Source: Promethearchaeota archaeon Loki_b32 (lineage in GTDB: Archaea > Asgardarchaeota > Lokiarchaeia > Sigyniarchaeales > SOKP01). Taken from it: a DNA stretch of 64,000 nucleotides. Where the stretch lies: the NCBI GenBank assembly GCA_005223125.1, contig NJBH01000009.1, forward strand, positions 62,323 to 126,322, given 5' to 3'. Below, in pieces: positions 2,092 through 31,741 of this stretch. Below the pieces are notes generated by a model, which was not told the DNA's origin, searched no databases, and worked only from the letters and a program-made list of their open reading frames with translations. Position 1 is the stretch's first letter. Every line of letters begins with the position of its first letter. The translations under genes and the position numbers were made by a program.

Positions 2092-2880
2092 ATGCTAGAT
2101 AGATGTGATTTCATGGGCAAATATGAGAATTTAAATAATAAATTGAATAAATATCTGAGATTAGCTACATTTCCTGTTGGAATAAAATTACTGGAAGATT
2201 CTAAACATTTAGATGATATTAAGTTTTTAAAAAAACCTGAACATAAAATTGCGCTCTGTCAAATATTTAGTTATGCTAGATATTATGGCTGGACAATGGG
2301 ATGTACAAAAGAAGATAATTTATGTCCATTAGCAGGAATTAGCATTGGTTTTGAAGAGTCATACAAGCTTTATGAGGAAGGTTCTTTTTTTATTGGAAGG
2401 TATAATGAAACCAAAGAAGCTGCTAAAAAAACAACGGCTACAATACCCAAATTACCTTATAATCAATATTCTGCAATAGTTTCTGGAACTTTGGGTCGTA
2501 TAGACTTTGAACCTGATCTAATCTTAATTTGGGGTAATTCTGCTCAAATTATGAGAATAATTCAAGGTTATTTATGGAAAAGAGGAGGAAGGGTTTCAAT
2601 GACTACTTTCTGTGATGGTGTATGCGCAGATACGATATCAAATGCGATGCTTACAGGTGATTTGCAGATTGCTTTTCCTTGCCTTGGTGATCGTCGATAC
2701 GGAATGGCAAAGGATTCCGATTTAATAGCATCAATACCAATTGACATTATAGATGAAATTATTGATGGAATGGAGGAAACTCATAAAGCAGGGACAAGAT
2801 ATCCGATTCCTTATCAGGTATCTACTCCTGAGTTTTTTGTAAAATTAAAAAAACAATTAGATAAAGTAAAAAAAAATTAA
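2092..2880 (+). CDS. DUF169 family protein (probable start 2113)
   Basis: PVGIK, LCQ, CPLA, PDLILIWG, CADT, PCLGDRRYG pattern. Confidence 0.8.
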   Translation: MLDRCDFMGKYENLNNKLNKYLRLATFPVGIKLLEDSKHLDDIKFLKKPEHKIALCQIFSYARYYGWTMGCTKEDNLCPLAGISIGFEESYKLYEEGSFFIGRYNETKEAAKKTTATIPKLPYNQYSAIVSGTLGRIDFEPDLILIWGNSAQIMRIIQGYLWKRGGRVSMTTFCDGVCADTISNAMLTGDLQIAFPCLGDRRYGMAKDSDLIASIPIDIIDEIIDGMEETHKAGTRYPIPYQVSTPEFFVKLKKQLDKVKKN

Positions 2881-4034
2881 TTTAATTTATTTTTATAGCG
2901 TTCTTCACCATATTTCTGATAAGCTTCTGGTATCGATTCAACAGGTATTTTATTCTCGACTTTTTCAAGAATTAATCGCTTAGATGAACAATTTGTTGAA
3001 CATACTCCGCACCCAATACATAAGTCATTTTTTAATTCTAAGTTAAATTTACCACCTTCTTCAATTGACGGAAAGATAGCATGAGTTGGGCATAAATCTA
3101 CGCATCGATAACATTCGGCGCATTCTATTGATTGATCTATTTTTGCCCGAAAGTTCGAGAGAGCCAATCCCCCCATTCTATGAAACTTAGTTAACATCTT
3201 TAAAATTCCACAGTGCTCTTTATCACAATTACATATGAAATCTGGTTTTTGGGCATTTAAAGTGCAATGTACCAATCCATTTTTTTCACATGTTATCAAT
3301 AATTCTAAAGCTTCTTCCTTAGATAATCTTTTACCCATTCCATTTTCAATGAAGTATTCTGCTACCATATCAAATGTCATACAAACATCTATAGCTGTTT
3401 TAGGTGTGTAACCCAAGTGTGTAGCTTTTACTTTGCAAGAACACGGCATTGTGGAAAAGGCTGTATATTGATTTATCAATTCTTCAACTTCCTCGAAAGC
3501 TAAGATTTTTTGTGATACAATTCCTAAATCTTCGTTAACTATAATCAATTTTTCTGATGTTTTAGAAGGTAGAACTCTAGGAAATGGATAATTAGATGCC
3601 CATGCTGTTGGAATTATATATCTGTTTAAATATTTATCAAAAAGCCTTGCGAGTCGCTTTATTTTCTCATCTGAATATATTTTTGCATTACTGAATACAA
3701 ACTCAAAAATACCTATTACAGTAGGCCAAATCATGAATTTTGCTCTTTTCCGGGATTTTCCTAATTTAAACATTAATCCTCTTTCTGCTAGAGAATTCAA
3801 AATCTCAATTACTTTTTCTACAGGTTTACCACTTCTTTGAGCTATCTCTATCGGAGATGCTTGGTCCATGATAGGTGCTTCAAAATAACTCAAAATCTCA
3901 GCTTCTTCCTCAGTAAAAATTTCTTTTAAAATTTTCATGATTCCAATAGATTTTGGTGTTCTTGTAGGCCATTTATCCATCCTTTGCCTTAATAATTCAT
4001 AATAATCCATTTTCAATGATTGATCTTGTGTCAT
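2877..4034 (-). CDS. 4Fe-4S dicluster protein with N-terminal wHTH
   Basis: C-terminal CAECYRCVDLCP and CIGCGVCSTNC; PCSC and ICNCDKEHC; N-terminal HTH-like segment. Confidence 0.8.
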   Translation of the reverse strand: MTQDQSLKMDYYELLRQRMDKWPTRTPKSIGIMKILKEIFTEEEAEILSYFEAPIMDQASPIEIAQRSGKPVEKVIEILNSLAERGLMFKLGKSRKRAKFMIWPTVIGIFEFVFSNAKIYSDEKIKRLARLFDKYLNRYIIPTAWASNYPFPRVLPSKTSEKLIIVNEDLGIVSQKILAFEEVEELINQYTAFSTMPCSCKVKATHLGYTPKTAIDVCMTFDMVAEYFIENGMGKRLSKEEALELLITCEKNGLVHCTLNAQKPDFICNCDKEHCGILKMLTKFHRMGGLALSNFRAKIDQSIECAECYRCVDLCPTHAIFPSIEEGGKFNLELKNDLCIGCGVCSTNCSSKRLILEKVENKIPVESIPEAYQKYGEERYKNKLN

Positions 4035-4231
4035 ATAATATTCACTAAAAAACTTTTTTAATTAAGGGAAAGCTAAGTAAAAATTTCTTATAAATCTGAT
4101 GTTAATTTTGATCTATTCTTTCTTAATAACAACTTACTAATAATATTGTTTTTAATTTGAATAATAATTATAATCTCTATATAATATTCTTAAAGAACCA
4201 TTAATATCAAATAAAAAAATGGCGTTTTAAA

Positions 4232-4831
4232 ATGACTGAGAGCAAATTGATGCCTTTACAAGAAGCTATATCAACTTACGTTCAAGATGGAGACCTTATA
4301 GGTATTGGAGGCCTTTCTTTTTGGAGGAAACCCATAAGTGCGTGTAGGGAAATAATTAGACAAAATAAAAAAGATTTATCAATTTGTACATTCGTAGGGG
4401 GGATAGATGTTGATATGCTCATAGCAGGAGGGTGTATTTCAGAAGTAAGAAGTTGTTTTATAGGAATGGAAATCTTTGGTATGGCACCACATTATAGAAA
4501 AGCTGTAGAATCAGGTGTTATTCACGTATCAGAGGAAAGTGAGGCTAATATTGCTTTAGGATTGAGAGCTTCTTACTTGAAAGTACCATTCATGCCTTTA
4601 AAGGGTATTATCGGAACTGATATGCCAAAAGTAAGAAATGATATAAAACAAATCGAAGATCCCCTTGGTTCAGGAACACAGGTTATGGCAGTACCTAAGA
4701 TCGACTTAGATGTAGCAATAATTCATGTTCCATATGCTGATGAATTTGGGAATGGTAATATAGCTGGAGCTGTATGGATGGATGCTGACATGGGAAAAAC
4801 AGCAAAAAAGACAATTATTAATCCTATATAA
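4232..4831 (+). pseudogene. 3'-truncated CoA-transferase subunit A (gctA-like), copy 1
   Basis: Near-identical protein to 7646-8506 up to ...TAKKTII, then a stop. Confidence 0.85.
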
Positions 4832-4877
4832 AAATCTAAAAAATTCTATAATACATTTGAAAATAAGGTGATATTAA

Positions 4878-5174
4878 ATGGTTGAGAGCAAATTGATGTC
4901 TTTAAAAGAAGCAATTTCAACTTACGTTCAAGACGGTGATCTTGTAGGGATTGGAGGGCCTTCCTTTTGGAGAAAACCCATTAGTGCATGCAGGGAAATA
5001 ATTAAGCAAAATAAGAAGGATCTATCAATTTGTACTTTTGTTGGTGGAATAGAAGTTGATATGCTTATTGCTGGAGGATATATTTCGGAAGTATGTTCTT
5101 GTTTTGTTGGAATGGAGATTTTTGGAATGGCACCACATTATCGAAAAGGGATTTTCTATAATAACCCCTTTTAA
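4878..5174 (+). pseudogene. 3'-truncated CoA-transferase subunit A (gctA-like), copy 2
   Basis: Matches the first ~90 aa of 7646-8506 (to PHYRK), with L>P, C>Y and R>C changes. Confidence 0.85.
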
Positions 5175-5223
5175 ACTCGAGAGCTTTAATAGAAATAATA
5201 ATAACCCCTATGGTGTTGTATCG

Positions 5224-7437
5224 ATGCCATTATCTATTAACAAAGCTTTAATAAAAATAAAAAAAATAAAAAAAAGATCAAGTAAAATTAAATATGAGTT
5301 TTTTTTTATATTAAACAGAATAATCCAAAGAAGAAGTGAAAAGAAAATAACTAAAAGAGTTTCATATTTTTTAGGTGTATCAATAGTTTTATGTTTGGTA
5401 TTTGGATCGTTAAAATTAGCGTTTAATTCACTCAATACTTCCGACACACAGCAAGCGGAAATGAAATTTAATAAGAACAATTTCAAAGAGCGTCCTAAGA
5501 TGTCTGTAATTCACGTACCAATTATTATTAACGGAAATGGTGACTTTCATACTCAAGCGTTGAATGAAGGGTGGTTTGGAGATGGAACGGAAGGCAATCC
5601 ATATGTTATTGAGGATTATATCATAAATATTAGTTATCCAAATTACCACTCTAACGGTATTGATATTCAGAACACAAATGTCTATTTCATTATCCAAAAA
5701 GTAACTATACACAATGAACATGGATATGATAATAGTGGATTTAGTTTATTCAATGTCAAAAACGGAGAACTAAGGGACAATACCGCCATTAATAATAATT
5801 ATGGTTTCTTTCTCCAATACGCTACCAATATCACCCTTATAGGTAATACTGCCTATAATGATTTCACTGCATCTTATGGTACAGGCTTCTACCTCCAAAA
5901 CTCAACTAATAACATCTTAATGGGCAATACTGTTGATAGTGATAATGAATATGGTTTTTACCTCCAATCCTCCGCCAATAACACCCTCACGGGCAATATC
6001 GTAAGCAAAAATTATAATCATGGTTTCAAGCTCAATGAATCTAGTAATAACTCCTTTATAGACAATATTGCTAATGATAATTTATTTGGTTTCTACCTCC
6101 AAAACTCTACCAATAACAACTTGATAGGTAATACCGCTAATAATAATTATAGAGATGGAATCCTCCTCCATAGCTCTGCAAATAACGTTTTAACCAACAA
6201 TATATTTAATAACAACGGAATTCGTATATTGAGTGACACATTAGAAGAATCTATTCAAACTCTAGTAGAAAATAATACAGTAAACGGAAAGGATTTGTTA
6301 TATTTTCAGAATAAGGTAAAAACTGTTATTTCTTCTGAAGTGGGACAGATTATCCTCGTTAATTGTTCATCCATTCAAATCGAAGATATTATTATTGAGA
6401 TGAAAGCATCAGTAGGATTTTTATTAATGTTTAGTAAAAATATCTCAATGATAAATAATACTGCTATTAATAATTATTATGGTTTCTACTTTCAATACTC
6501 TACTAATAGCACCTTGAAGGGCAATACTGCTATTAATAATCATATTGGTTTCCATCTCCAATACTCCACTAATAACACCCTAACAAAAAATACCGCCAAT
6601 AATAATTTTATTGGTTTCCACCTTCAATACTCCATTAATAATACCTTAACCGGTAATTACCCAAATGATAATGATCACGGATTCTATCTCTATACCTCCC
6701 CCAATAATATTTTGACTGATAATGTACTTATTAACAACGGTTTTGGCATGCACAGTTATACAGTAGAAGATTCCATTCAATCTTTAGTAAAAAATAATAC
6801 AATAAATGGAAAGGACTTGATATTTCTTCAGAATGAGATTAATACAATTATATCTTCAGAAGCTGGGCAATTTATTCTTGTTAATTGCTCGTTAATGCGT
6901 ATCGAAAATCTTATCATTGATATGAAGGTATTAACGGCGTTTGCATTGCACTTTAGTACAAATATTTTAATAATTAATAATACCTTCAACAATGTGTTTA
7001 TTGGTTTCCATCTCTGGTTCTCTACCAATAACACTCTGATAGGTAATACTGCTAATAATAATTACAATGGTTTTGTCCTCTATGCCTCCGTCAATAACAC
7101 TCTGATAGGCAATACTGCTAATAATAATCATAATGGTTTCTATCTCTATGGATCTTCTAATAATACCTTAATGGGCAATATAGCCAATTATAACGATGAG
7201 AATGGTATATACTTAGGCTCCAGTAATTATAATATAATTCGTGGAAATATTTTATTACATAATGGAAGAGATTGTATTGTTCAGCACGATTGCCTAGGAA
7301 ACGTTATTTTTGATAACATTTGTGAAGTTGATGAGACTAAAACTATAATTTCAAGCTATAATGTAGTGTTTTTAATTGGAATAATTACTCTTGTTTCCTT
7401 AATTTACATTAAAAAAAGATATATCAATTATAAATAG
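5224..7437 (+). CDS. NosD/CASH-type parallel beta-helix surface protein with C-terminal membrane anchor
   Basis: Many GFxLxxSxNNTLxGNTAxNN repeats; PIIINGNGDF...GDGTEGNPYVIE start; hydrophobic N-terminal segment; C-terminal ISSYN + TM + KKR (Loki-CTERM-like). The ORF-track start at 5056 overlaps the gctA fragment, so the true start is uncertain. Confidence 0.8.
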   Translation: MPLSINKALIKIKKIKKRSSKIKYEFFFILNRIIQRRSEKKITKRVSYFLGVSIVLCLVFGSLKLAFNSLNTSDTQQAEMKFNKNNFKERPKMSVIHVPIIINGNGDFHTQALNEGWFGDGTEGNPYVIEDYIINISYPNYHSNGIDIQNTNVYFIIQKVTIHNEHGYDNSGFSLFNVKNGELRDNTAINNNYGFFLQYATNITLIGNTAYNDFTASYGTGFYLQNSTNNILMGNTVDSDNEYGFYLQSSANNTLTGNIVSKNYNHGFKLNESSNNSFIDNIANDNLFGFYLQNSTNNNLIGNTANNNYRDGILLHSSANNVLTNNIFNNNGIRILSDTLEESIQTLVENNTVNGKDLLYFQNKVKTVISSEVGQIILVNCSSIQIEDIIIEMKASVGFLLMFSKNISMINNTAINNYYGFYFQYSTNSTLKGNTAINNHIGFHLQYSTNNTLTKNTANNNFIGFHLQYSINNTLTGNYPNDNDHGFYLYTSPNNILTDNVLINNGFGMHSYTVEDSIQSLVKNNTINGKDLIFLQNEINTIISSEAGQFILVNCSLMRIENLIIDMKVLTAFALHFSTNILIINNTFNNVFIGFHLWFSTNNTLIGNTANNNYNGFVLYASVNNTLIGNTANNNHNGFYLYGSSNNTLMGNIANYNDENGIYLGSSNYNIIRGNILLHNGRDCIVQHDCLGNVIFDNICEVDETKTIISSYNVVFLIGIITLVSLIYIKKRYINYK

Positions 7438-7645
7438 CTATTTAAAATCCAATTTTAATCTGCGATCTGAAATTTTCTAAATAATAAAATTATTTAATTT
7501 TAATTCTAAACTAATTTAGATTTCAGATAAAAATTATAAAAAGAGCTCTCTCATTCTCAATTCTTTAATTTGATAAATAATTATATTTTGCAAAATTAAA
7601 TTTTCACTAATATTAAATGAAAATAAATTGAGTATGTGTAAATAA

Positions 7646-8506
7646 ATGAGAAAGAGCAAGTTATTATCTTTAGAAGAAGCGATTTCTACTTATATACAAG
7701 ACGGAGATCTTGTTGGAATTGGTGGACTTTCTTTTTGGAGGAAGCCAATTAGTGCTTGTAGAGAAATAATTAGACAAAATAAAAAGGATTTATCTTTATG
7801 CACATTTGTTGGTGGTATTGAAGTTGATATGTTAATTGCGGGTGGATGTATTTCTGAAGTACGATCTTGTTTTGTTGGGATGGAGATTTTTGGAATGGCA
7901 CCAAATTTCCGAAAAGCAGTAGAATCTGGTTCGATCAAAATATCCGAAGAAAGTGAAGCTACAATTGCTTTAGGATTAAGAGCCTCATACTTGAAAGTCC
8001 CTTTCATGCCTTTAAAAGGTCTTATTGGTACTGATATGCCGAAAGTAAGGCATGATATTAAACAGATCGAAGACCCTCTTGGTTCCGGGACTCAGATTAT
8101 GGCAGTACCTAAGATAGATTTAGATGTCGCTATAATTCATGTGCCTTATGCTGATGAATTTGGAAATGGTAATATTGCTGGTGCTGTATGGATGGACGCT
8201 GATATGGGAAAAACAGCAAAAAAGACAATTATCACATGTGAGAAATTAGTGGAAACAGAGGATATTCGCTATTTACCCGGAAAAGCACAACTACCAATTC
8301 AAACAACTAATGCAGTAGTTAAAATGCCTTTTGGAGCACATCCAACCTCATGTTATCCTATATATACCTTTGATCCACTTCACATTCAATGCTATTTGAA
8401 AACTGATTTTGAAGATTATAAGAAAAAATTCATAACAGATAAAACACCTACTCAATATTTAGAAGAAACAGGTGGAGTACAAACAATTTTTAATATACTA
8501 TTATAG
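7646..8506 (+). CDS. gctA: Glutaconate/3-oxoacid CoA-transferase subunit A
   Basis: EAISTYIQDGDLVGIGG, VPFMPLKGLIGTD, DVAIIHVPYADEFGN, PFGAHPTSC. Confidence 0.85.
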   Translation: MRKSKLLSLEEAISTYIQDGDLVGIGGLSFWRKPISACREIIRQNKKDLSLCTFVGGIEVDMLIAGGCISEVRSCFVGMEIFGMAPNFRKAVESGSIKISEESEATIALGLRASYLKVPFMPLKGLIGTDMPKVRHDIKQIEDPLGSGTQIMAVPKIDLDVAIIHVPYADEFGNGNIAGAVWMDADMGKTAKKTIITCEKLVETEDIRYLPGKAQLPIQTTNAVVKMPFGAHPTSCYPIYTFDPLHIQCYLKTDFEDYKKKFITDKTPTQYLEETGGVQTIFNILL

Positions 8507-8515
8507 GAGGGAAAA

Positions 8516-9397
8516 ATGATGAGTGAATATTCAAAAGATTATACTACAGATGAAATGATGACTGTATTAATGGCAAGAGAAGTTAGAAACGATGATGTAA
8601 TGATCGTTGGTGTGGCAACTCCTATGGTATGGGCAGCATTTACATTAGCAAAATTGACTCATGCACCAGATGCAATATACCATTATATCATGGGAAATAC
8701 TTTTGTACAAGAAGCACGACAAGTATCACTACTATATCTTGAGATGAATACAGCGAGAGCATATCGATTTCAAGATAGTGTAGAATGTACCTTAGAATCA
8801 TTACCCTCTGATAAACTTACAACCATTGAATTTTTTCGACCAGCCCAGATTGACCAATATGGGAATTCTAATAACATTTGTATAGGAGATTGGAAGAAGC
8901 CTAAAATTCGACTCCCTGGTGCTGCAGGTATCTTAGATTTTAGCATGTTTTATGCTCGTGGTTCTTTTCTTTATACACCACGACATGATACAAGAACATT
9001 TGTACCGACAGAAAAGTTATTCTTTATTTCTGGTGTAGGATTTCCAGATGGAAAACCTTCTATATGCGGGGGGGCTGGACCTCAGTGTGTAATTACTAAC
9101 CTAGCTTATTTGGATTTTGAAAACGAAACAAAAAGGATGAGGTTAAATTCAATTCATCCTGGCAATGATCTTGAGACTTTAAAAAATTCAACTGGATTTG
9201 AACTGATTGTTTCAGAAGAAATAAAAGAGACTATACCTCCTACGAAGAAAGAAATTGAATTATTAAGAGAAAAGGTTGATCCATTAAATATCAGAAAATT
9301 AGAAGTTCTTTCAGGTAATGAACGAGAAGAGCTATTAGATGATATAATTCAAAAAGATTTAGCAAAGCAAAATAAATTTCCCAAATTATTATTCTAA
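8516..9397 (+). CDS. gctB: Glutaconate/3-oxoacid CoA-transferase subunit B
   Basis: AQIDQYGNSN, RLPGAAG, GPQCVITNLA, SIHPG, TGFEL; follows subunit A with a GGAGG RBS. Confidence 0.85.
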   Translation: MMSEYSKDYTTDEMMTVLMAREVRNDDVMIVGVATPMVWAAFTLAKLTHAPDAIYHYIMGNTFVQEARQVSLLYLEMNTARAYRFQDSVECTLESLPSDKLTTIEFFRPAQIDQYGNSNNICIGDWKKPKIRLPGAAGILDFSMFYARGSFLYTPRHDTRTFVPTEKLFFISGVGFPDGKPSICGGAGPQCVITNLAYLDFENETKRMRLNSIHPGNDLETLKNSTGFELIVSEEIKETIPPTKKEIELLREKVDPLNIRKLEVLSGNEREELLDDIIQKDLAKQNKFPKLLF

Positions 9398-9584
9398 GTA
9401 AATAGTTAAATACATCTAAAAATATCGCAAAATCTTATTTTTTTTTGATCGTTATATTTAATAGTTCAAAAATACCTATAAAACAACAATAAGTTTTGTG
9501 TAATATAATAAAAAGTTATTAGATTATTAATTTATAATATAATTAGTGAATTTTGTAGTTGAAATGAAAGATAGTTAAAACAAA

Positions 9585-10022
9585 ATGGAAAGAGTAAAAT
9601 ACAAGATTATAAGTATAGATGAATTGGAGAGAGCGATAACTAACATAAGTAAAAATCATGACGAGATTTTATTATGTTATTTATATGGTTCTTATGTATC
9701 AGGGAACAAAACAGAATTTAGTGATATTGATATTGGAATTTTCCTTGATAATGCATTCAAAAAACACTATTTATATCAAGTAGAATTAAGCTTAGAAATA
9801 GAAAAAGAATTCGATAACAAGATTGAAATAGATTTATGCATTTTAAACGAGGCTACGCCTCGATTTTTGTACAATGTTATAAAAAGTGGACAGAATATCT
9901 ATTCAAAGGAAAAAAAAATACAATATGAATATGAAATAAGAATTTTATATTATTATTTAGATATTAAGCCAATGTTAGACATGTATGACAAGATAACCAT
10001 CATGGAGGCACTTAAAAATTAA
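9585..10022 (+). CDS. Minimal nucleotidyltransferase (MNT) antitoxin, type VII TA
   Basis: YLYGSYVSGNKTEFSDIDIG (GSx10DxD) and IDLCILN. Confidence 0.88.
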   Translation: MERVKYKIISIDELERAITNISKNHDEILLCYLYGSYVSGNKTEFSDIDIGIFLDNAFKKHYLYQVELSLEIEKEFDNKIEIDLCILNEATPRFLYNVIKSGQNIYSKEKKIQYEYEIRILYYYLDIKPMLDMYDKITIMEALKN

Positions 10023-10434
10023 AATAAATCGTGATTTAGTAATTACTAGGTTAAATAAGCTAAATGAATTATTAGATATTTTAAATGAGCTAAAAAATAT
10101 AAAGAAAGAAGATTTCCTGTCTAACTATAAGAACTATTTTACAACCCAGAGAACTTTAGAAATTTGTATAAACATATGTATAGATATTGGAAATCACATT
10201 GTTTCTCTCAATAATATAGAAAGACCTGAAACATTTAGCGATATCATTAAAATATTAGCTAAACATAATGTTATAAGCGAGGAACTTTCAACTCGATTAA
10301 TTAAAATGGTAAGATTTCGCAATTTATTAGGACATTTTTATTTAGAAATTGATAATGAAATTATTTATAATATTTTACAAAATGATATTAAAGATTTTAA
10401 TTCTTTTAGGGAAGCAATATTAGCTAAGTTGTAA
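10018..10434 (+). CDS. HEPN/DUF86 ribonuclease toxin; no canonical start (ATT at 10018)
   Basis: Manual translation (I)KINRDLVITRLNKL...RTLEICINICIDIGNHI...MVRFRNLLGHFYLEID...AKL*; Rx4H motif RNLLGH; GGAGG at 10004-10008. Not in the ORF track. Confidence 0.8.
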   Translation: MKINRDLVITRLNKLNELLDILNELKNIKKEDFLSNYKNYFTTQRTLEICINICIDIGNHIVSLNNIERPETFSDIIKILAKHNVISEELSTRLIKMVRFRNLLGHFYLEIDNEIIYNILQNDIKDFNSFREAILAKL

Positions 10435-14836: not shown

Positions 14837-15568
14837 CTATACATTGGAGTATAATTCAATTTTCCGCCCATTTTCTTTCAAACGGATTAAATTGTCCTTA
14901 GACAATTTATCAATATGATATTTTACAGTATTTCGTGCAAGATTGATTTTCTTAGAAATCTCGGAGGAGGAAATCCCCGGATAATTTTGAATTAATTTTA
15001 AAATTTTTGTCGTAGTTTCTGATTTAATTGGTAGATTTTTAAAAGCATCAATTGATTCAATAGAGGATGTAATTGGAAAATATATTGTATATTGCCCATA
15101 TTTTTCCTTTTTTATTATACGATACTTCAATAAAACATCTAAATGCCATTGTAATTGACCTTTTTGTAGATTACAGTTTCGCATCAATTCATTTTGATGT
15201 ATTCCTGGATTATTGATGATTTCCCTTAATATGTTCAAACGATTTTCATTTTCAAAAATATCTGTGAGAGTTAAGTAAGATTTTCCTTTTTGAATAAAAG
15301 GTTTTCTTATAAAATAACCTATATATTCTTTTACAGTAAGTACTTCAAAAATAGATAACAATAAAATTATTCCTATTAAAATAGATACTAAAATTATTCC
15401 AAGAGTTATTTCTTCAGCAGGACCTAAAAATTCATCCAATGGTTTAATTAACTGATATAGAACCACGGATAATATTACAAGAGAGAAAATAATAAGAACA
15501 AATTTCAATAGGGAAAAATAAATAAATTTTTTGGATGATTTACGATTATTCAATTTCTCAAAACCCAT
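14837..15568 (-). CDS. Membrane-anchored (2 TM) double winged-helix transcriptional regulator
   Basis: Two N-terminal hydrophobic helices, then IFENENR...PGIHQNEL...GQLQWHL and PGISSSEI...NTVKYHIDKL; paralog of 26962-27687. Confidence 0.85.
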   Translation of the reverse strand: MGFEKLNNRKSSKKFIYFSLLKFVLIIFSLVILSVVLYQLIKPLDEFLGPAEEITLGIILVSILIGIILLLSIFEVLTVKEYIGYFIRKPFIQKGKSYLTLTDIFENENRLNILREIINNPGIHQNELMRNCNLQKGQLQWHLDVLLKYRIIKKEKYGQYTIYFPITSSIESIDAFKNLPIKSETTTKILKLIQNYPGISSSEISKKINLARNTVKYHIDKLSKDNLIRLKENGRKIELYSNV

Positions 15569-15574
15569 TGAAAA

Positions 15575-16165
15575 TTATTTTTTTTCTATTTTATTTCTAT
15601 TTAATTTTAAGAAGGGAAACATAAAAAATACATTATTTGCATAATCTAAAAATTCATCTCCATATTTAGCTTTTAAGGCATACTCTTCAATTTTTGCTAA
15701 AATAATATAAGCTAATACTTCGCCAGTCCAAATCAAAAACATAAAAATGTATACATCGATACTCAAGTCAAAATTGACAATAGGACTGGTTTTGAAAACC
15801 ATTAAAGTCATTCCAAAAGTCATGATAATTAATGATATATATTGAGGATGTCTTAAATATCTATATGGTCCAGTTCGAATTAGTTGTTTTCTGTGAGTTA
15901 ATTGATAAATTAGAGATGTGATAAAAAGCATGAACCCTAATATTATAATATATATTTCATAGCTATTAAATAAGAATGCAAGATCCGATCCTAAAATTCC
16001 TGGGTTTTGAAAAAAGAACGCTAAATAGGTAATTAATGGCACACTCATAATACCAAACCATATGGCAGTGCATGGCACATATTGGAAAATCGGGATTAAT
16101 ATAGAGGAAAGACTTGTAGCAACCGAAGTTATTTTATTTTTTATTTTATTTCCTTTAAGATTCAT
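15575..16165 (-). CDS. Isoprenylcysteine carboxyl methyltransferase / PEMT-family membrane methyltransferase
   Basis: LIRTGPYRYLRHPQY and IEEYALKAKYGDEFLDY; multi-TM. Confidence 0.8.
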   Translation of the reverse strand: MNLKGNKIKNKITSVATSLSSILIPIFQYVPCTAIWFGIMSVPLITYLAFFFQNPGILGSDLAFLFNSYEIYIIILGFMLFITSLIYQLTHRKQLIRTGPYRYLRHPQYISLIIMTFGMTLMVFKTSPIVNFDLSIDVYIFMFLIWTGEVLAYIILAKIEEYALKAKYGDEFLDYANNVFFMFPFLKLNRNKIEKK

Positions 16166-16223: not shown

Positions 16224-16251
16224 TAAAGGTTTAAGGTGCACTTTTAGAACA
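16224..16251 (-). promoter_or_regulatory. Conserved 28-bp upstream motif, copy 1 (putative operator + BRE/TATA)
   Basis: taaaggtttaaggtgcacttttagaaca; one mismatch to the copies at 17482 and 31219; 59 bp upstream of the ICMT-like start. Confidence 0.75.
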
Positions 16252-17481: not shown

Positions 17482-17509
17482 TAAAGGTTTAAGGTGCACT
17501 TTTCGAACA
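17482..17509 (-). promoter_or_regulatory. Conserved 28-bp upstream motif, copy 2
   Basis: taaaggtttaaggtgcacttttcgaaca; 52 bp upstream of the LVIVD gene start. Confidence 0.75.
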
Positions 17510-25075: not shown

Positions 25076-25435
25076 TTACTCAAAAGGTTCAAAACTTCTA
25101 CAAATAGATTCTTTTTTTAAAAATTTATTCTTAATTTGACAATGAAATATCTCCTCATTATAGTAGACACAATTGCAACAAGAGAAGAGATGATTTTTTA
25201 GTTTTTTAGTTATTTCCTTTAATTTTTCAGGATACTTTCCTTTACTTAACATAGTTTCAAGTTTATCGTGTGATGTTGCTGTTAATTTACAAAAGATGAC
25301 CTTTGGAGAGGGAGGATTCCATATTTCAATCAAAGACGTACCAGTTACATTCGTAGGAGAATTTTGGTTGTTATACCCACATTTACAAAATTTTTTCCTT
25401 AACATATTTCCACATTCAGGACAGAATTCAACCAA
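25076..25435 (-). CDS. Small double Cys-cluster protein with an RpoM/TFS-like N-terminal Zn ribbon (paralog A)
   Basis: VEFCPECGNML..CKCGY; C-terminal CCNCVYY..HC..SIC. Confidence 0.7.
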   Translation of the reverse strand: MVEFCPECGNMLRKKFCKCGYNNQNSPTNVTGTSLIEIWNPPSPKVIFCKLTATSHDKLETMLSKGKYPEKLKEITKKLKNHLFSCCNCVYYNEEIFHCQIKNKFLKKESICRSFEPFE

Positions 25436-26366: not shown

Positions 26367-26594
26367 TACCTGTCCACTCTTTTATCTGCTTAAGGATTTC
26401 ATTCATCCAAATATTCTGATCCCATTTCTCCCAGATTTCTACCAATATTACATTCTTATCCTTACAAATAAGCCTCTTCTTCCTATCAGCTTCCTGTTGA
26501 TCTGGATGACTATCACCATGCCAATATGTCCCCTGAGCTTCAAAAGCAATTCCTATCCACTTATCATCTAAACCTAGATAATCCTTAAGTGGTT
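26311..26594 (-). pseudogene. 5'-truncated Vsr/DUF559-like endonuclease domain fragment
   Basis: Manual translation ...YLGLDDKWIGIAFEAQGTYWHGDSHPDQQEADRKKRLICKDKNVILVEIWEKW...GTL*; ExxGxYWH...DxxK...IWE pattern. Confidence 0.65.
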
Positions 26595-26641
26595 CGGCTC
26601 ATATCTAATATCATCTAAACCTAGATAATCCTTAAGTGGTT
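26562..26641. repeat. 33-bp perfect direct repeat (26562-26594 and 26609-26641) with a 14-bp spacer
   Basis: tatcatctaaacctagataatccttaagtggtt occurs twice. Confidence 0.9.
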
Positions 26642-26645
26642 TATT

Positions 26646-26934
26646 TAATTCCAGATAATTCTCATATATTTATATGGTCCGGTTCGAATTAGCTGCTTTC
26701 TATGAGTTAATTGAAATATTAATGAGTAAACAAAAAGCTGAAATAAAAATAGTCAGTTGATAGAATTCTGGGATTTTGAAAGAAAAAGGATATGTAAATT
26801 ATGAACGGAACACTCATTATACCTTTCCATATAGTTAAACAGGGTACATACTGAAAAATTGGAATTAATATTGAAGAAATTCTCGTAGAAATTGCTTCAA
26901 TTTTTCTTTTAATTTTACTTCTCTTAAAATTCAT
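26646..26934 (-). pseudogene. Disrupted ICMT/PEMT-like paralog of 15575-16165
   Basis: N-terminus SSILIPIFQYVPC...; after a deletion/frameshift it reads SLIFQLTHRKQLIRTGPYKYMR and is then truncated. Confidence 0.82.
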
Positions 26935-26961
26935 CCTTGGTTCCCATATATCTATTGCGAA

Positions 26962-27687
26962 TTATTCTTTTTGATTTACATATAACTTTATTTCACGATT
27001 ATATCTTTCAAGTATTATTAAATCAAGTTTAGCCAGTTTATCAACATGATATTTCACAGAACTTCGGCTCATATCTAATTTCTTAGCAATCTTCGCTGAA
27101 TTAATGCCAGGATTTTTTTCAATTAAATCTAGAATTTTTATGCTAGTTTTAGACTTTGTAATCAATTTTAATGGTATTGTTTTCATTTCTTTTTTGGATA
27201 AAACAGGGAAAAAGGATACATATTGTCCTAATTTCTCTTTTTTAATTATTCCATATTGTAATAATACATATAAATGCCATTGTAACTGCCCCTTCTGCAA
27301 ATTACATTTTCTAAGGAGTTCATTATTATGGATTCCGGGTTCTTGTAGAATTTTATTAATGATATTTTTACGGTTTTCATTTTCAAAAATATCTTCGAAA
27401 GATAAATAAGTATACCGTTCAGCTACTATTGTTTTTCTTCTAAAATAGTCTTTATACTGATTAACAGTTAGTATGATTAAAAGTGATGTTAAAATTAGTG
27501 TGAAAAATGCTAATAAATCGATTAAAAACCAATTGATATTATCTTCAAGATAAAAAGATATCTTCGTTTCAGGAGAGATTAGTAGGAATAAGGATAATAG
27601 AGAAATGCAAATAAGAGTGATTATAATACCTAATTTGATATAAAATAACCGTTTGTATTTCCCTATTTCATTTTTAAAAAAACTCAT
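26962..27687 (-). CDS. Membrane-anchored (2 TM) double winged-helix transcriptional regulator
   Basis: Two TM segments, then IFENENR...PGIHNNEL...LQKGQLQWHL...PGINSAKI...VKYHVDKL; paralog of 14837-15568. Confidence 0.85.
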   Translation of the reverse strand: MSFFKNEIGKYKRLFYIKLGIIITLICISLLSLFLLISPETKISFYLEDNINWFLIDLLAFFTLILTSLLIILTVNQYKDYFRRKTIVAERYTYLSFEDIFENENRKNIINKILQEPGIHNNELLRKCNLQKGQLQWHLYVLLQYGIIKKEKLGQYVSFFPVLSKKEMKTIPLKLITKSKTSIKILDLIEKNPGINSAKIAKKLDMSRSSVKYHVDKLAKLDLIILERYNREIKLYVNQKE

Positions 27688-27707
27688 ATTAAATAAAAAG
27701 AAATTGG

Positions 27708-27998
27708 CTAATTAAAAATTTTAAAAATTATTTTAGTCTTAATTTTTTTTTTAAAATCGTTTACTCTAACTGTAGAATATAAGGTTCCCGCGGGGTAAAT
27801 ATGTTTGGAATTTTCTATCCGAACAAGAACGATTAAAAATCCTAAGAAACTAACTACTATAATTAATAGGATTTTATATAATAGAGAATGTTTACTGTTA
27901 TCAAATAAAAATACTTTGTTTATTTCTTTTCTGTTTAGACCTAATCCCTCTCCAATTTTATATAGATTAAATATTTTATCAAACATTTTATTGATCAC
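27708..27998 (-). CDS. Small single-TM protein, YPxGTxYS family member 3 (putative rSAM substrate)
   Basis: LYKIGEGLGLNRKEIN - TM - YPAGTLYSTVRVNDF; likely start at ATG 27986. Confidence 0.75.
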   Translation of the reverse strand: MINKMFDKIFNLYKIGEGLGLNRKEINKVFLFDNSKHSLLYKILLIIVVSFLGFLIVLVRIENSKHIYPAGTLYSTVRVNDFKKKIKTKIIFKIFN

Positions 27999-28065
27999 AC
28001 TTCTATTTTCTTGTTAAAAAATTATTGGTTTTAAATTTTGGTGTCTTAATTTTCTCTTTATGCAA

Positions 28066-29412
28066 TCATGATATAGTTCCAATAGAAGTAATTGGTTCAA
28101 ATTTTGGTACGACACCTTTCTTACGTTTTATCCAATTTAATTCATCCGTTATAACAGATTTTATCTTACCTTTATTTCGAATATTAGTTATTCTTAGAAG
28201 ACGCAATGCCTTTTTATAAATTTTCAAAGCCTGAGAATTCGATTTTAGCTTTACTAAAACTTTACCTAAATTCCAATAAAATAAAAAATTGTCTCTATAG
28301 AGTTGTATAGCTTTTAAAAGCATATTATAGGCTTTCTTATAATTTTTTTGATAAAATATCTTTACACCGAGATAAAAAAAATTAAAAGCACTTCTTTCTG
28401 CTAAAGCAGATGCGAAAAACTTTAAATTATAATCTTCGTTTTCCTTTGATAAATTTCTTAATTTATCGATAAGATTTTTTCTTTCCTCTTTGACTTTTAT
28501 TAGATTTGTTATAAATTTTCTCGCAAAAGATTCTATTGAATAAAAAACAATTTTTTGTGATCCTGAATTAATCGGACCTTTTTTTAATAAATTATATAGA
28601 ATATTGGGGAAATTGTATTGAATTAAAAGATCTGTAATTTCTCGTATGTTCGAATTTTCAGATTGAGAAATAAAATATTTACTTTCTATTACTTTCAATA
28701 ACAGATTGACGATTTGAGGCCATTTTATGAGTGATTCAATAATTAAGTCATAAATTAACTTTTTATTCTTCTTTCTTTTAAATTCAAGCGTTTGTATTGC
28801 GATAAAAGATAATAAATCTTCTTGTTCTTTAATTAACAGTGAATCATTAAAATTACTGTAATTCATAGTAAGTAATTTTTTACGGATTTTAGCTATAATT
28901 TGAAATATTTCTGTTTCATATACATTCATTACTTTAATACATTCAAATCTTACTGATGGAATAAATTCATGGTTGTAAAAACTTTTGGTACTCATATTTT
29001 CAAATCCATTATTTTCTAATAGTTCAATTAACAAGAAAGGAGGAAAACATAATTTATGTTGTAAACCTTTATGGGGTATTCCGTAAATCCAACCTAAAAT
29101 TTCTTTTTTTTGTTCTTTGGTCGAATCTAGATAATGCCGACATACTTTCTTGAGATCAGGAGTCTCAATAATTAATTTACCTCCTGGTTCTAATACCCGA
29201 AAAAATTCACTTAAGGCATAGATTGCTTCAAAAAATGATAAGTGCTCTATTAGATGAATGGCTTTTATTTCTTCACTACAATTATCTTCAAATTGTAAAT
29301 CTATAGCGGACATTAATTTATCTGCAATTAATGTTTCATATAAATCAATATTGCAATAACCTATCTCGTACTTTTTTCCACAACCGATATTTAATTTCAT
29401 TTTTCTTTTCAA
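28066..29412 (-). CDS. Class I SAM-dependent methyltransferase with C-terminal TPR region
   Basis: KLNIGCG...NID, HLIEHL, FFRVLEPGGKLIIETPD; C-terminal YKKAYNMLLKAIQL...YWNLGKVL...ALKIYKKAL TPR pattern; likely start 29400. Confidence 0.82.
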   Translation of the reverse strand: MKRKMKLNIGCGKKYEIGYCNIDLYETLIADKLMSAIDLQFEDNCSEEIKAIHLIEHLSFFEAIYALSEFFRVLEPGGKLIIETPDLKKVCRHYLDSTKEQKKEILGWIYGIPHKGLQHKLCFPPFLLIELLENNGFENMSTKSFYNHEFIPSVRFECIKVMNVYETEIFQIIAKIRKKLLTMNYSNFNDSLLIKEQEDLLSFIAIQTLEFKRKKNKKLIYDLIIESLIKWPQIVNLLLKVIESKYFISQSENSNIREITDLLIQYNFPNILYNLLKKGPINSGSQKIVFYSIESFARKFITNLIKVKEERKNLIDKLRNLSKENEDYNLKFFASALAERSAFNFFYLGVKIFYQKNYKKAYNMLLKAIQLYRDNFLFYWNLGKVLVKLKSNSQALKIYKKALRLLRITNIRNKGKIKSVITDELNWIKRKKGVVPKFEPITSIGTIS

Positions 29413-29656
29413 AATCTTTAATTTTTATAGTAGAATATTTTGTGCCAGATGGATAAGTACTATCTGCTGAATTTATTCCAATAGATATTAAGAAGAATAA
29501 TAAGATAGAAGATGATACAATTAAAATAAAAATAAATAATATTCTAAATGAAATTTGATGTTTTTTATCATGAAAAAATAATAAATTATTTACCTCTTTT
29601 TTAGATAGCCCTAAAAATTTGCCAAATCTGTAAAATTGAGCAATTGTGGTAATCAT
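29345..29656 (-). CDS. Small single-TM protein, YPxGTxYS family member 2 (putative rSAM substrate)
   Basis: FYRFGKFLGLSKKEVN - TM - ADSTYPSGTKYSTIKIKDF; ATGA overlap with the upstream paralog. Confidence 0.75.
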   Translation of the reverse strand: MITTIAQFYRFGKFLGLSKKEVNNLLFFHDKKHQISFRILFIFILIVSSSILLFFLISIGINSADSTYPSGTKYSTIKIKDFEKKNEIKYRLWKKVRDRLLQY

Positions 29657-29988
29657 TTTAAAGATTTTACACCAATATTTAGAACTTTAAAAAATCTACT
29701 ATAGAAAGGGGAAACGAGTTTGCTAAATCTAGATTTATTCTTAAAATCTTTAACTTTTACTGACGAATAAAAAGAGTTGGAAGGATACGTGGAATCTGCG
29801 GGGTTGGTTATTATCATAAAGAGTGAAAATATAAATATACAGAAAAATGCAATAATAATTATGGAAAGACAGAAAAGTTTCATTTTTTTATATCTCCCCG
29901 AATAAGATAAGAAAACTCTATTGATTTCATTTTTATGAATTCCTAAACTCCTACCAATTTGATAAAACTGGATAATCTCATCAAACAT
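29653..29988 (-). CDS. Small single-TM protein, YPxGTxYS family member 1 (putative rSAM substrate)
   Basis: FYQIGRSLGIHKNEIN - TM - ADSTYPSNSFYSSVKVKDF; GGAGG RBS at 30001-30005. Confidence 0.75.
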   Translation of the reverse strand: MFDEIIQFYQIGRSLGIHKNEINRVFLSYSGRYKKMKLFCLSIIIIAFFCIFIFSLFMIITNPADSTYPSNSFYSSVKVKDFKNKSRFSKLVSPFYSRFFKVLNIGVKSLK

Positions 29989-30017
29989 TTTTAATATTAA
30001 CCTCCATTATCATGAAT

Positions 30018-31172
30018 TTAATTTAAGATATTAATTAATTTTGATATTGTAGTATCTACTTTTTTATTAATAGGTACAAGTTTATGATTTATCATTGTAT
30101 TTTCAATGGCTCTCAAACAATAAGGGTTTTCAAAGGATTTTAAAGCTAGACTAGTTCCAAGGCAACCCCCCCTACAATCATCAGCAAGATCGCATTGCTG
30201 GCAAAAATCTTTTAATGGATATCTTTTATTTTTCAATCTTTTTAAAATTTCATCTAAACTTTCATTTCTAATATTACCTTCAATATAATCATCTGGAAGT
30301 GTAAGACATCCTTTTATGTTTCCATTACTTTGAATACCTAAAACTGAATGACCTGCTTGACACCCAACCCAAGGATTTAATCCTAATTTAGGAATAAACC
30401 TTGAGAAATATCCAAAGCAATGAGCCCCGATTAAAGGTAATCTTTTGTAAGAATATTTTTTATGATTAATTGCTATAAATAATGCCAAAGTATAATATTC
30501 TTCTCTAGAAATAACTAATTCTTTTGGAAAACGTCCAATAGGGACTGCTAATTGGATTTGCCATGCGATATTTTTATCAATTAATAACTTCTTAATCATG
30601 TTTATTTCTTTAAAATTAATTTTACTTACGGACGTAATAACAGTTACTGGAAGCTTTTCTTTTTTTAGTAAACTTATAAGATTTAAAGTTTTTTTGAATG
30701 AATTGTTGATACCCCGTAAATAATCATGTGTTTCTCCTCTTCCTCCATCTAAACTTAGAGATACACAGTCTGTTTTTAATTCTTTTATCTCTTGTATATG
30801 TTTCTCTAAATTTAATCCATTCGTGATTATGGATAATTGCATTTTTTGATTTTTTACATCTCTTGCAATGTCATACCAATCATCTCGTAATAATGGTTCG
30901 CCCCCCATTAAAGCAACTCCCTTATAACCATATGACTTTAAGTCTTTAACTAATTTTAAAGCTTCATTTGTATTTAATTCATCAGAGCGAGCAAATCCTG
31001 CATCTGAACCACAGTGAATACATTTACTATTGCACTTTAACGTGATTTCCCAAACTGCACAATTAGGTTTAATTTTATTTAATAATAGATCTGAAAATTT
31101 CGTCATATGATTTTCTGAATTACGTTTATTATTGTTATTTATGATTTGTAAATTAAAATCCTTTGTTTGCAA
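30018..31172 (-). CDS. Radical SAM / SPASM-domain protein
   Basis: VWEITLKCNSKCIHCGS (CxxxCxxC), GGEPLLR; SPASM GCQAG...GNIKGC...GNIR...CQQC...CRGGC...PYC. Confidence 0.93.
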   Translation of the reverse strand: MQTKDFNLQIINNNNKRNSENHMTKFSDLLLNKIKPNCAVWEITLKCNSKCIHCGSDAGFARSDELNTNEALKLVKDLKSYGYKGVALMGGEPLLRDDWYDIARDVKNQKMQLSIITNGLNLEKHIQEIKELKTDCVSLSLDGGRGETHDYLRGINNSFKKTLNLISLLKKEKLPVTVITSVSKINFKEINMIKKLLIDKNIAWQIQLAVPIGRFPKELVISREEYYTLALFIAINHKKYSYKRLPLIGAHCFGYFSRFIPKLGLNPWVGCQAGHSVLGIQSNGNIKGCLTLPDDYIEGNIRNESLDEILKRLKNKRYPLKDFCQQCDLADDCRGGCLGTSLALKSFENPYCLRAIENTMINHKLVPINKKVDTTISKLINILN

Positions 31173-31218
31173 TAAAAAAAATTTAACTTCGTTATACTAT
31201 TAGTAAAAATCTTAGTAA

Positions 31219-31246
31219 TAAAGGTTTAAGGTGCACTTTTCGAACA
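31219..31246 (-). promoter_or_regulatory. Conserved 28-bp upstream motif, copy 3
   Basis: taaaggtttaaggtgcacttttcgaaca, identical to copy 2; 47 bp upstream of the rSAM TTG start. Confidence 0.75.
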
Positions 31247-31369: not shown

Positions 31370-31741
31370 TCAACCGATAATATCATACGGTTCATAACTT
31401 TTGCATATAGAATCTTTACTTAGATACTTATTCTTAAATTTACAATGAGATATTTCCTCATAATAGTAAACACAGTTTCTGCATGAATAAAGATGATTTT
31501 TAAATTTTTCTCTAACTTCCTTTAATTTTTCTGGAATCATCCCTTTATTTAGCATAGATTTAAGTTTTTCATGTGGAGTTGCTGTTATTTTACAATAGAT
31601 GGCATTTGGAGAGGGAGGGTTCCAAATTTTTATCAAATGATTGTGAGACGCATCCTTAGAGGTAGCATCCAACTCACCATACCCACACCGGCAAGTTTTT
31701 TTTCTTAACATGTTTCCACATTCAGGACAGAATTCCACCAT
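31370..31741 (-). CDS. Small double Cys-cluster protein with an RpoM/TFS-like N-terminal Zn ribbon (paralog B)
   Basis: MVEFCPECGNMLRKKTCRCGY...IWNPPSP...CRNCVYY..HC..SIC; clear paralog of 25076-25435. Confidence 0.7.
   Translation of the reverse strand: MVEFCPECGNMLRKKTCRCGYGELDATSKDASHNHLIKIWNPPSPNAIYCKITATPHEKLKSMLNKGMIPEKLKEVREKFKNHLYSCRNCVYYYEEISHCKFKNKYLSKDSICKSYEPYDIIG

Follow-up and report, generated by a model that had tools for sequence, protein, structure and literature searches.

What does an archaeal cell make with a radical S-adenosylmethionine (rSAM) enzyme, a methyltransferase and a handful of very small membrane proteins encoded in one cassette? The question is raised by a minus-strand locus at 26.6-31.3 kb of a 64,000-nt stretch of DNA from Promethearchaeota archaeon Loki_b32 (contig NJBH01000009.1). 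That whole stretch is called the window here, and coordinates are positions in it unless prefixed by a locus identifier, a contig or an accession. At this locus an rSAM enzyme with a SPASM domain is encoded together with three small paralogous proteins, P1, P2 and P3, and a methyltransferase fused to tetratricopeptide-like repeats (MT-TPR). An initial annotation, made by reading the letters alone, had taken P1-P3 for substrates or precursors resembling those of peptides that are ribosomally synthesized and then modified post-translationally (RiPPs). The analysis described below leads to the same answer as the probable one: the cassette is likely a maturation system for ribosomally made peptides or proteins, built on RiPP-like logic, with P1-P3 as its substrates. 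Peptide maturation by radical SAM/SPASM enzymes is a familiar feature of bacteria, but we know of no RiPP precursor in which the core is joined to the leader through a transmembrane (TM) helix. Our verdict is that the system is real, conserved and uncharacterised, an rSAM-dependent RiPP-like maturation that is set apart by the TM helix between leader and core.

The cassette and its distribution

Every gene listed in the initial annotation is present on the minus strand, in the order promoter box, rSAM/SPASM, P1, P2, MT-TPR, P3, a protein that combines two TM helices with two winged helix-turn-helix (wHTH) domains and, last, a truncated ICMT-like gene. The finer points that it had made, a ribosome-binding site for P1, an ATGA junction of P1 and P2, and an overlap of P2 with the methyltransferase gene, can all be read in the window. 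The rSAM gene (30018..31106) encodes 362 amino acids (aa) with no N-terminal RiPP recognition element (RRE) domain. Its start was taken as the ATG at 31106 because homologs align from there; an alternative TTG at 31172 adds just an unconserved, low-complexity, Asn-rich stretch. P1 (29653..29988, 111 aa) has a GGAGG 14 nt upstream and consists of a leader motif, a TM helix, the Tyr-rich core STYPSNSFYSSVKVKDF and an unconserved tail. Its paralog P2 (29345..29656, 103 aa) begins with an ATG that overlaps the P1 stop as ATGA, and the last 18 codons of P2 overlap the start of MT-TPR in a different frame, the MT-TPR ATG lying inside P2 (56-nt overlap, 29345-29400). MT-TPR itself (28066..29400, 444 aa) comprises a class I methyltransferase-fold domain, a helical linker and TPR-like repeats, and is followed by the third paralog, P3 (27708..27986, 92 aa counted from its ATG).

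The same genome holds a second cassette on contig C52, consisting of an rSAM enzyme 62% identical to that of the window, an 86-aa P and an MT-TPR (50%), again with an ATGA overlap. This P ends at the overlap with the methyltransferase start, and the C-terminal 18 residues of P2 in the window arose through loss of the usual stop/ATG overlap with that gene. At this second locus (L015, G000:C52:8000-24000, 6251-10046) MT-TPR is followed by a 340-aa membrane protein with a weak CBM96/DNRLRE-like match and by a Zn-ribbon gene.

Within the family to which Loki_b32 belongs, a scan with a P profile found P in 64 of 134 other genomes, and the cassette core recurs in about 40% of the species. When 30 family loci were cut out with 1.5-kb flanks, the rSAM gene lay beside P in 27 and MT-TPR in 28, with one to three tandem P genes; a single locus (L028) had P without either partner. 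The order rSAM, one to three P, MT-TPR was kept wherever both flanks were visible, and also at 12 of 12 distant loci of the phylum, where the rSAM enzyme is 43-51%, MT-TPR 28-33% and P 16-26% identical and P has a longer N-terminus. Counting strong P matches in the family, P and MT-TPR occur together in 52 genomes; 2 genomes have P by itself, in each case at a contig end, and 1 has MT-TPR by itself. The many family genomes without P are missing MT-TPR as well. The genomes compared are related, and this co-occurrence is a pattern rather than a statistic. The rSAM-P-MT-TPR arrangement is far beyond chance, and the near-perfect association of P homologs with both enzymes supports the initial annotation. 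The conserved core is an rSAM gene, then one to three P copies, then MT-TPR. Within one genus just about half of the species (28-29 of 53) carry the system, which therefore has the character of an accessory one.

Outside the family, a scan with an MT-TPR alignment recovered full-length pairs of rSAM and MT-TPR, belonging to diverged forms of the system, in Thor-, Hel-, Hod- and Heimdallarchaeota, Atabeyarchaeia, strain MK-D1, Thermoplasmatota and Aenigmatarchaeota. In the cultured Promethearchaeum syntrophicum MK-D1 (L119, NZ_CP042905.2, 3385-7233) the two enzymes are 43% (rSAM) and 26% (MT-TPR) identical to those of the window, and right after them come three tandem P-like genes (5819-6265, 6323-6766 and 6763-7233), each encoding two TM helices, with products ending in Y-[N/D/G]-V-Y-D-S-S-K-K. 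A metagenome-assembled genome (MAG) labelled as Dehalococcoidia has MT-TPR and a P-like open reading frame (ORF) on a contig whose end precedes any rSAM position. All told, the family is spread over most Asgard lineages and several other archaeal phyla, and no characterised member was found. A literature search that included TIGR04103, TIGR03913, the GDL motif and Asgard rSAM RiPPs turned up no paper describing the cassette family, and a survey of archaeal RiPPs mentions generic rSAM RiPP classes only (PMC12144867). The occurrences in Thermoplasmatota and Aenigmatarchaeota make the system wider than the Asgard one that had been suggested.

Proposed substrates and enzymes

P1-P3 are 33-34% identical to one another and share invariant residues Y68, P69, Y74, S75, D81, F82 and K85, giving a tail that reads Y-P-x4-Y-S-x5-D-F-x2-K. 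Across 34 aligned P sequences (16-39% identity), G16, Y68, Y74 and D81 are invariant, while G12, L17, E21, G71 and F82 are conserved in at least 90%. Conservation is thus confined to two blocks. The N-terminal leader block, G-x3-G-L-x3-E-[I/V], is followed by a variable hydrophobic helix, and the C-terminal core block reads Y-x-x-G-T-x-Y-[G/S/A]-[T/S]-[I/V]-x3-D-[F/L]; the TM helix and the remainder vary. Among 164 motif instances from 129 representatives, the second tyrosine is followed by G in 61% of cases, by S in 23% and by A in 13%. No cysteine of the core is conserved. Leader and core, both of them conserved, are encoded beside a maturase, as is generic to RiPP systems.

An exhaustive profile search of 1.84 billion representatives gave just 168 P matches at E ≤1e-3. 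No Pfam or NCBIfam family, the NCBIfam peptide models included, fits any P, and a Protein Atlas search with P returned FtsX-like TM noise only (at 0.89). Among the window's three copies, P1 is the one that is maintained: it is 86-87% identical in the closest relatives (L058/L059), whereas their P2 is either broken internally or down to its final 19 codons (L059 7451-7715), and P3 is truncated in L059/L067. A P copy after the methyltransferase gene is also found at loci L069-L071 and L074.

Relatives of P without a TM helix were found in archaeal metagenomes. They have the same leader followed by one to six head-to-tail copies of a 15-aa core, such as YKAGTxYGT[I/V]SPKD[L/F]. In 15 of 20 metagenome loci with a TM-less P, the contig has one to three homologs of the rSAM enzyme (38-57% identical) close to the peptide genes, most often flanking them. 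These proteins have the look of classical precursors with a leader and repeated cores, and support the part of the initial annotation that saw RiPP-like precursors; the modification that it attached to them, a crosslink or a methylation, is something that we infer. The TM-less repeat peptides were found in the metagenome scan and not in the scan of species-representative genomes, which used alignment A6 (an earlier one, A5, was too variable). Three TM-less representatives (P0097, P0116 and P0145) are on contigs of less than 1.3 kb, where gene context is not informative.

Two of these TM-less loci have further features of their own. In an archaeal metagenome cluster (L130, Ga0272441_10000596, 2195-8847), a precursor of 132 aa, in which five to six YKAGTxYGT[I/V]SP cores stand in tandem, is encoded between two rSAM/SPASM paralogs; a papain-family cysteine protease and two B12-binding rSAM enzymes are nearby, and the cluster adjoins a threonyl-tRNA synthetase with an archaea-specific editing domain. 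In a Thermoplasmatota MAG (L064, JALOTN010000007.1, 2749-8125), a TM-less system encodes P-like peptides of 80 and 72 aa, two tandem rSAM/SPASM enzymes, MT-TPR and an AMP-binding (adenylate-forming) enzyme.

A third form of P, seen in MK-D1, Heimdallarchaeota, Thermoplasmatota and Aenigmatarchaeota, has the leader, a first TM helix, G-Y-P-[Y/F], a second TM helix and a C-terminal Y-[N/G/D]-V-[Y/F], which places one half of the motif on each side of the membrane. Because the TM-less, the Thermoplasmatota and the 2-TM forms all keep an rSAM partner, the link between the rSAM enzyme and P is the deepest one in the system.

The enzyme on the other side of that link is a radical SAM/SPASM protein. 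It matches PF04055 (Radical_SAM) with 88.8 bits (cut-off 29.5) and the SPASM domain PF13186 with 27.6 bits (cut-off 21.5); the cluster motif C25-x3-C29-x2-C32 (CX3CX2C) is conserved in 26 homologs, and seven SPASM cysteines (C249, C267, C302, C305, C311, C315 and C330) are invariant in the same set. The protein begins at the catalytic core, and Pfam finds no PqqD or RRE match in any cassette protein, in agreement with what had been noted by eye. The best NCBIfam model is TIGR04103 (nif11-class peptide rSAM maturase 3; 199.6 bits, E 6.6e-59, cut-off 725), followed by TIGR03913 (170.9 bits, E 3.3e-50, residues 31-354, cut-off 591.75) and by TIGR04133 and TIGR04053, which are rSAM/SPASM families with no assigned function. 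Every NCBIfam model remains far below its cut-off for this enzyme. In a genome scan with TIGR04103 the enzyme scored 198.3 bits, and the control genomes contained no true member for comparison.

Models for heme enzymes (AhbC/D, NirJ), MoaA, PqqE and MftC rank below the peptide-maturase models TIGR04103 and TIGR03913. Structure gives a similar picture. The AlphaFold2 model of the rSAM enzyme (mean predicted local distance difference test, pLDDT, 86) has SuiB, SkfB, BlsE, PqqE, CteB and anSME as its nearest solved folds by Foldseek, and the archaeal lipid enzyme GDGT-MAS (7TOM) comes 41st among the fold matches (TMq 0.49), behind RiPP maturases. A sequence search of the PDB gave generic rSAM matches only, and close homologs in public records are all named just 'radical SAM protein'. 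The enzyme is therefore nearest to peptide maturases rather than to cofactor or lipid enzymes; both its suspected likeness to peptide-associated SPASM proteins and the expectation that it would not group with the latter two classes are supported by NCBIfam and Foldseek.

For MT-TPR the AlphaFold2 model (pLDDT 89) has a compact class I SAM-methyltransferase fold at residues 1-157, a helical middle and TPR-like repeats at about 330-405. Its Foldseek matches are the SAM methyltransferases 3SM3, 1VLM and 3L8D (probability 1.0, TMt about 0.5). Residues G6-C7-G8, N17, D19, D27 and E52-H53-L54 are invariant in 14 homologs; G6-C7-G8 supplies the glycine-rich motif I and D19 the acidic residue after strand 2 that characterise class I enzymes. 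The Pfam scores of the domain fall below gathering (Methyltransf_23 20.4 against 27; Methyltransf_11 19.6 against 21.2), and the homolog from the Thermoplasmatota locus L064 exceeds it (24.9 against 21.2). The TPR repeats have weak Pfam matches and PDB matches at E 7.6e-10.

How might the rSAM enzyme recognize P without an RRE? The enzyme (26-row alignment) was co-folded with P1 residues 1-90 (34-row alignment), SAM and three 4Fe-4S clusters. The score was 0.78, against 0.00 for the best of three controls. In a calibration, 58 of 80 solved complexes came up to this mark, as did 2 of 110 mismatched pairs; these counts hold only roughly, since the use of our own alignments and of riding ligands differs from the calibration set-up. 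Runs agreed in at least 51% of contacts, with a partner pLDDT of at least 60. The confident contacts join P1 residues 4-36, the leader block, to rSAM residues 165-169, 202-217, 236-238 and a few C-terminal residues; residues 202-217 form the helix between the core and the SPASM domain. The model supports, rather than shows, binding of the P1 leader to the rSAM enzyme. It gave no confident placement to the core tail. The initial annotation had assigned substrate recognition to the TPR region; since in the model the leader contacts the rSAM enzyme itself, the TPR region is not needed to explain recognition.

Proposed mechanism and competing readings

These observations can be assembled into a sequence of events. 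The leader of P (G-x3-G-L-x3-E-I, residues ~5-30) would dock directly on the rSAM helix at about 201-217, with no separate recognition protein. The enzyme would then act on the tail, Y-P-x-G-T-x-Y-S-[S/T]-[I/V]-x3-D-F, most likely at one of the two invariant tyrosines, where it would either make a crosslink or, like the spliceases, cut tyramine out of the backbone. MT-TPR may add a second modification or hold the substrate. In Asgard archaea the TM helix between leader and core would leave the product tethered to the membrane instead of released. Post-translational insertion is established for tail-anchored and very small membrane proteins. P is some 85-110 aa long with its TM helix near the C-terminus. 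Such a helix can hardly leave the ribosome before translation terminates, so insertion must be post-translational, and this would leave time for cytoplasmic enzymes to modify P first.

Several points weigh against this reading. We infer modification of the P tail from genes and models, and the target residue, the chemistry, the role of MT-TPR and the topology have the same basis. The co-fold model did not confidently place the core tail and so says nothing about which residue would be attacked. If the leader is cytoplasmic, a single TM helix puts the core outside the cell, and modification would have to precede insertion. The split of the motif halves across the membrane in the 2-TM form is awkward for a crosslink in the Tyr-Tyr region. 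No dedicated leader peptidase or exporter gene was found in the window cassette or in L015, and the methyltransferase domain of the window protein is below the Pfam gathering thresholds. Related genomes are not independent samples. Lastly, window P1-P3 carry Y-S at the second tyrosine (FYSS, KYST and LYST), not the Y-G of known splicease sites.

The last point bears on the closest functional parallel. Binary spliceotide systems, which lack a Y protein, are represented by RhaX/RhaA and RasX/RasA of Rheinheimera (PMC11414181, PMC11626197). AlphaFold models of the binary kind have the leader helix of the precursor binding the enzyme directly (PMC11414181). The splice motif is X-Y-G (PMC11414181, PMC11626197), and splicing removes 135.06 Da (C8H9NO) at the tyrosine (PMC11626197). 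The cassette resembles these systems in pairing a precursor with an rSAM maturase that has no separate RRE protein, with direct docking of the leader predicted here too, and in a tyrosine-centred target: the 61% of motif instances with G after the second tyrosine read x-Y-G. The invariant tyrosine pair and the prevalence of x-Y-G in the family recall tyramine splicing. The cassette differs in the Y-S of the window proteins, in the TM helix of the precursors, in having MT-TPR as an obligatory partner and in its archaeal hosts. TIGR04103, which may be the splicease family, gives the window enzyme a score far short of membership. A tyrosine crosslink of the SuiB or PqqE kind is at least as likely.

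SuiB/StrB, the streptide enzyme (PDB 5V1S/5V1T), is the closest solved fold (Foldseek E 3.7e-15, TMq 0.72, identity 18%). Both enzymes consist of an rSAM core, a bridging region and a SPASM domain that carries two auxiliary clusters; the target, a presumed one for the window enzyme, is in each case a short motif with an aromatic residue. SuiB has an N-terminal RRE, which the window enzyme, beginning with its rSAM core, does not, and the SuiB precursors are short and soluble, with Lys and Trp. The second-best model, TIGR03913 (GDL-motif maturase, 'rad_SAM_trio'), presumably describes, judging from its name, a three-gene system with a small peptide that has a tyrosine and a downstream D-L-type motif; in P the spacing is Y-x12-D-[F/L], and the third gene is a different one. 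A SPASM rSAM enzyme from methanogenic archaea reportedly makes thioether crosslinks in a protein (PMC13692751). It is likewise an archaeal rSAM/SPASM enzyme and acts on a protein and not on a released natural product, as is proposed for the window enzyme. Its chemistry needs cysteine, which the P core does not conserve.

It is conceivable, if unlikely, that P proteins are instead small membrane anchors, whose N-terminal helix recruits the soluble rSAM enzyme and MT-TPR to the membrane to modify a lipid or a neighbouring surface protein of the LVIVD-repeat or CBM96/DNRLRE-like kind. The confident co-fold contacts cover the N-terminal segment of P only, which would fit an anchor equally well. 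Cassettes often lie beside membrane-anchored surface proteins, as in L015 and in L058, where an LVIVD gene is next to the rSAM gene, and a shared upstream box ties the window cassette to LVIVD and to a membrane methyltransferase of the ICMT/PEMT type. Yet those neighbours vary between loci, the core is the most conserved block of P, and the rSAM enzyme is closest to peptide maturases, with the lipid enzyme GDGT-MAS far down the list. The TM-less relatives cannot anchor anything, yet they retain leader and core between rSAM paralogs, and up to six tandem cores are typical of a precursor and would be meaningless for an anchor. It is these relatives, with the same leader and tandem cores beside rSAM paralogs, that favour a precursor over a membrane anchor.

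A smaller chance still attaches to P as the precursor of a peptide-derived redox cofactor, with its tail tyrosines converted as for pyrroloquinoline quinone (PQQ) or mycofactocin and the product tethered, in this case, to the membrane. PqqE and MftC, rSAM/SPASM enzymes too, have peptides with a tyrosine as their substrates. Models for both turn up in the NCBIfam results, the fold of PqqE is one of the nearest to that of the window enzyme, and neither exporter nor protease was found in the Asgard cassettes. The scores are nonetheless far below the cut-offs (PqqE, TIGR02109, 74.5 against 381.35; MftC, TIGR03962, 98.1 against 265), and there are no PqqB/C/D-like or MftB/D/E-like genes near the cassettes. 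Tandem cores and multiple paralogs would be unusual for a cofactor precursor, and the patchy distribution within a single genus is more typical of accessory peptides. That P proteins are small membrane-tethered HTH-like regulators, or membrane proteins of an unrelated kind that just share a transcript with two enzymes having other targets, is very improbable: the leader does resemble a helix-turn-helix, with faint NCBIfam matches to HigA, Tfx and MAD1 (E 0.03-0.1), but the segment of about 25 residues is too short for a DNA-binding domain, the matches are far below their cut-offs, the model docks the leader on the rSAM enzyme while controls score zero, and the genes stay linked in several phyla even with P identity down at 16-39%. 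A DNA-binding role for the leader was rejected because of its shortness, the faintness of the matches and the docking in the model.

RiPP-like maturation of P is, then, the reading that we prefer, and it may be extended to a more speculative proposal, to which we give appreciably less credence than to maturation itself. Asgard and some other archaea might make membrane-tethered RiPPs, tail-anchored-like proteins in which a leader-guided rSAM enzyme rewrites the tyrosine tail. The tail would also be methylated before post-translational insertion, and a non-proteinogenic structure, for instance a crosslinked or a beta-amino/ketoamide residue, would be displayed on the membrane surface, with a membrane-bound wHTH protein and a shared box controlling expression. 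If the tail is modified, the cassette would represent a new enzyme-substrate family, possibly with new tyrosine chemistry, and the closest archaeal kin of eukaryotes would be seen to decorate their surface or membrane in a new way. The diverged 2-TM form with its three tandem putative substrates in cultured MK-D1 makes native proteomics possible.

Candidate regulatory box and apparent local rearrangement

The genes downstream of P3 belong to a narrower setting than the core. The 2-TM double-wHTH protein (26962..27687, minus strand) has two N-terminal TM helices and matches PF24266 (67 bits) and HTH_24 (64 bits). Its co-occurrence with P is narrow: outside the window cassette, a homolog was seen behind the core genes in none but the closest relatives (L058/L059/L067/L068). 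The truncated ICMT-like gene (26660..26934, minus strand) consists of a 71-aa ORF (26719-26934) and a downstream fragment (26660-26738). The ORF has no Pfam match, but its first 62 residues match the N-terminus of an intact ICMT-like paralog at 15575-16165, and the fragment matches 15851-15929 at 80%; the ORF is therefore a truncated ICMT-like gene, and its earlier designation as a pseudogene is borne out. The intact paralog scores 32.5 bits with PF04140 (cut-off 24) and belongs to the ICMT/PEMT family. At the corresponding position in L058/L059 the ICMT gene is intact (191-aa match). In the two closest relatives the gene order is nitroreductase, Zn ribbon, LVIVD (in a single relative), rSAM, P1, MT-TPR, intact ICMT and wHTH; in L058 the LVIVD gene is directly upstream of rSAM and ICMT-wHTH directly downstream of MT-TPR. 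As core components, wHTH and ICMT were rejected, both being absent outside the closest relatives.

A promoter-proximal box, AAGGTTTAAGGTGCACTTTT in plus-strand reading (31221..31240, minus strand), precedes the rSAM ATG by about 115 nt. It is a 20-bp near-palindrome around GTGCAC. Three exact copies exist in the 4.13-Mb assembly, all in the window (16226-16245, 17484-17503 and 31221-31240), and they lie upstream of minus-strand genes for ICMT-wHTH, the LVIVD-repeat protein and rSAM, respectively, which agrees with the promoter motif that had been suggested. A copy with three mismatches (C52:14101-14120), oriented in the same way relative to the gene that follows, lies upstream of rSAM in the second cassette. 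The box is a plausible binding site for the wHTH protein, and possibly marks a small regulon; the wHTH protein, whose linkage to the cassette is limited to this lineage, is a candidate regulator. The restriction of wHTH and ICMT to the closest relatives, together with the shared box, thus points to a lineage-specific regulon around the three-gene core.

The region between 14837 and 17430 encodes an intact LVIVD-repeat membrane-anchored protein (358 aa, with 126-nt DNA repeats), the ICMT/PEMT-like protein (196 aa) and a 2-TM double-wHTH protein (243 aa), the wHTH paralog occupying 14837-15568. This intact LVIVD-ICMT-wHTH set is 10-15 kb from the cassette and under the same box, while the copy on the cassette side has the broken ICMT gene. 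Paralogous Zn-ribbon genes (MVEFCPECGNMLRKK...) at 25076-25435 and 31370-31741, with 79% nucleotide identity over 255 nt, stand on either side of the cassette. In close relatives there is a single copy, upstream of rSAM, and the pair points to a duplication or rearrangement that happened locally in Loki_b32. A perfect 33-bp direct repeat (26562-26594 and 26609-26641) with a 14-bp spacer follows just downstream of the truncated ICMT-like gene, in what appears to be a rearranged region.

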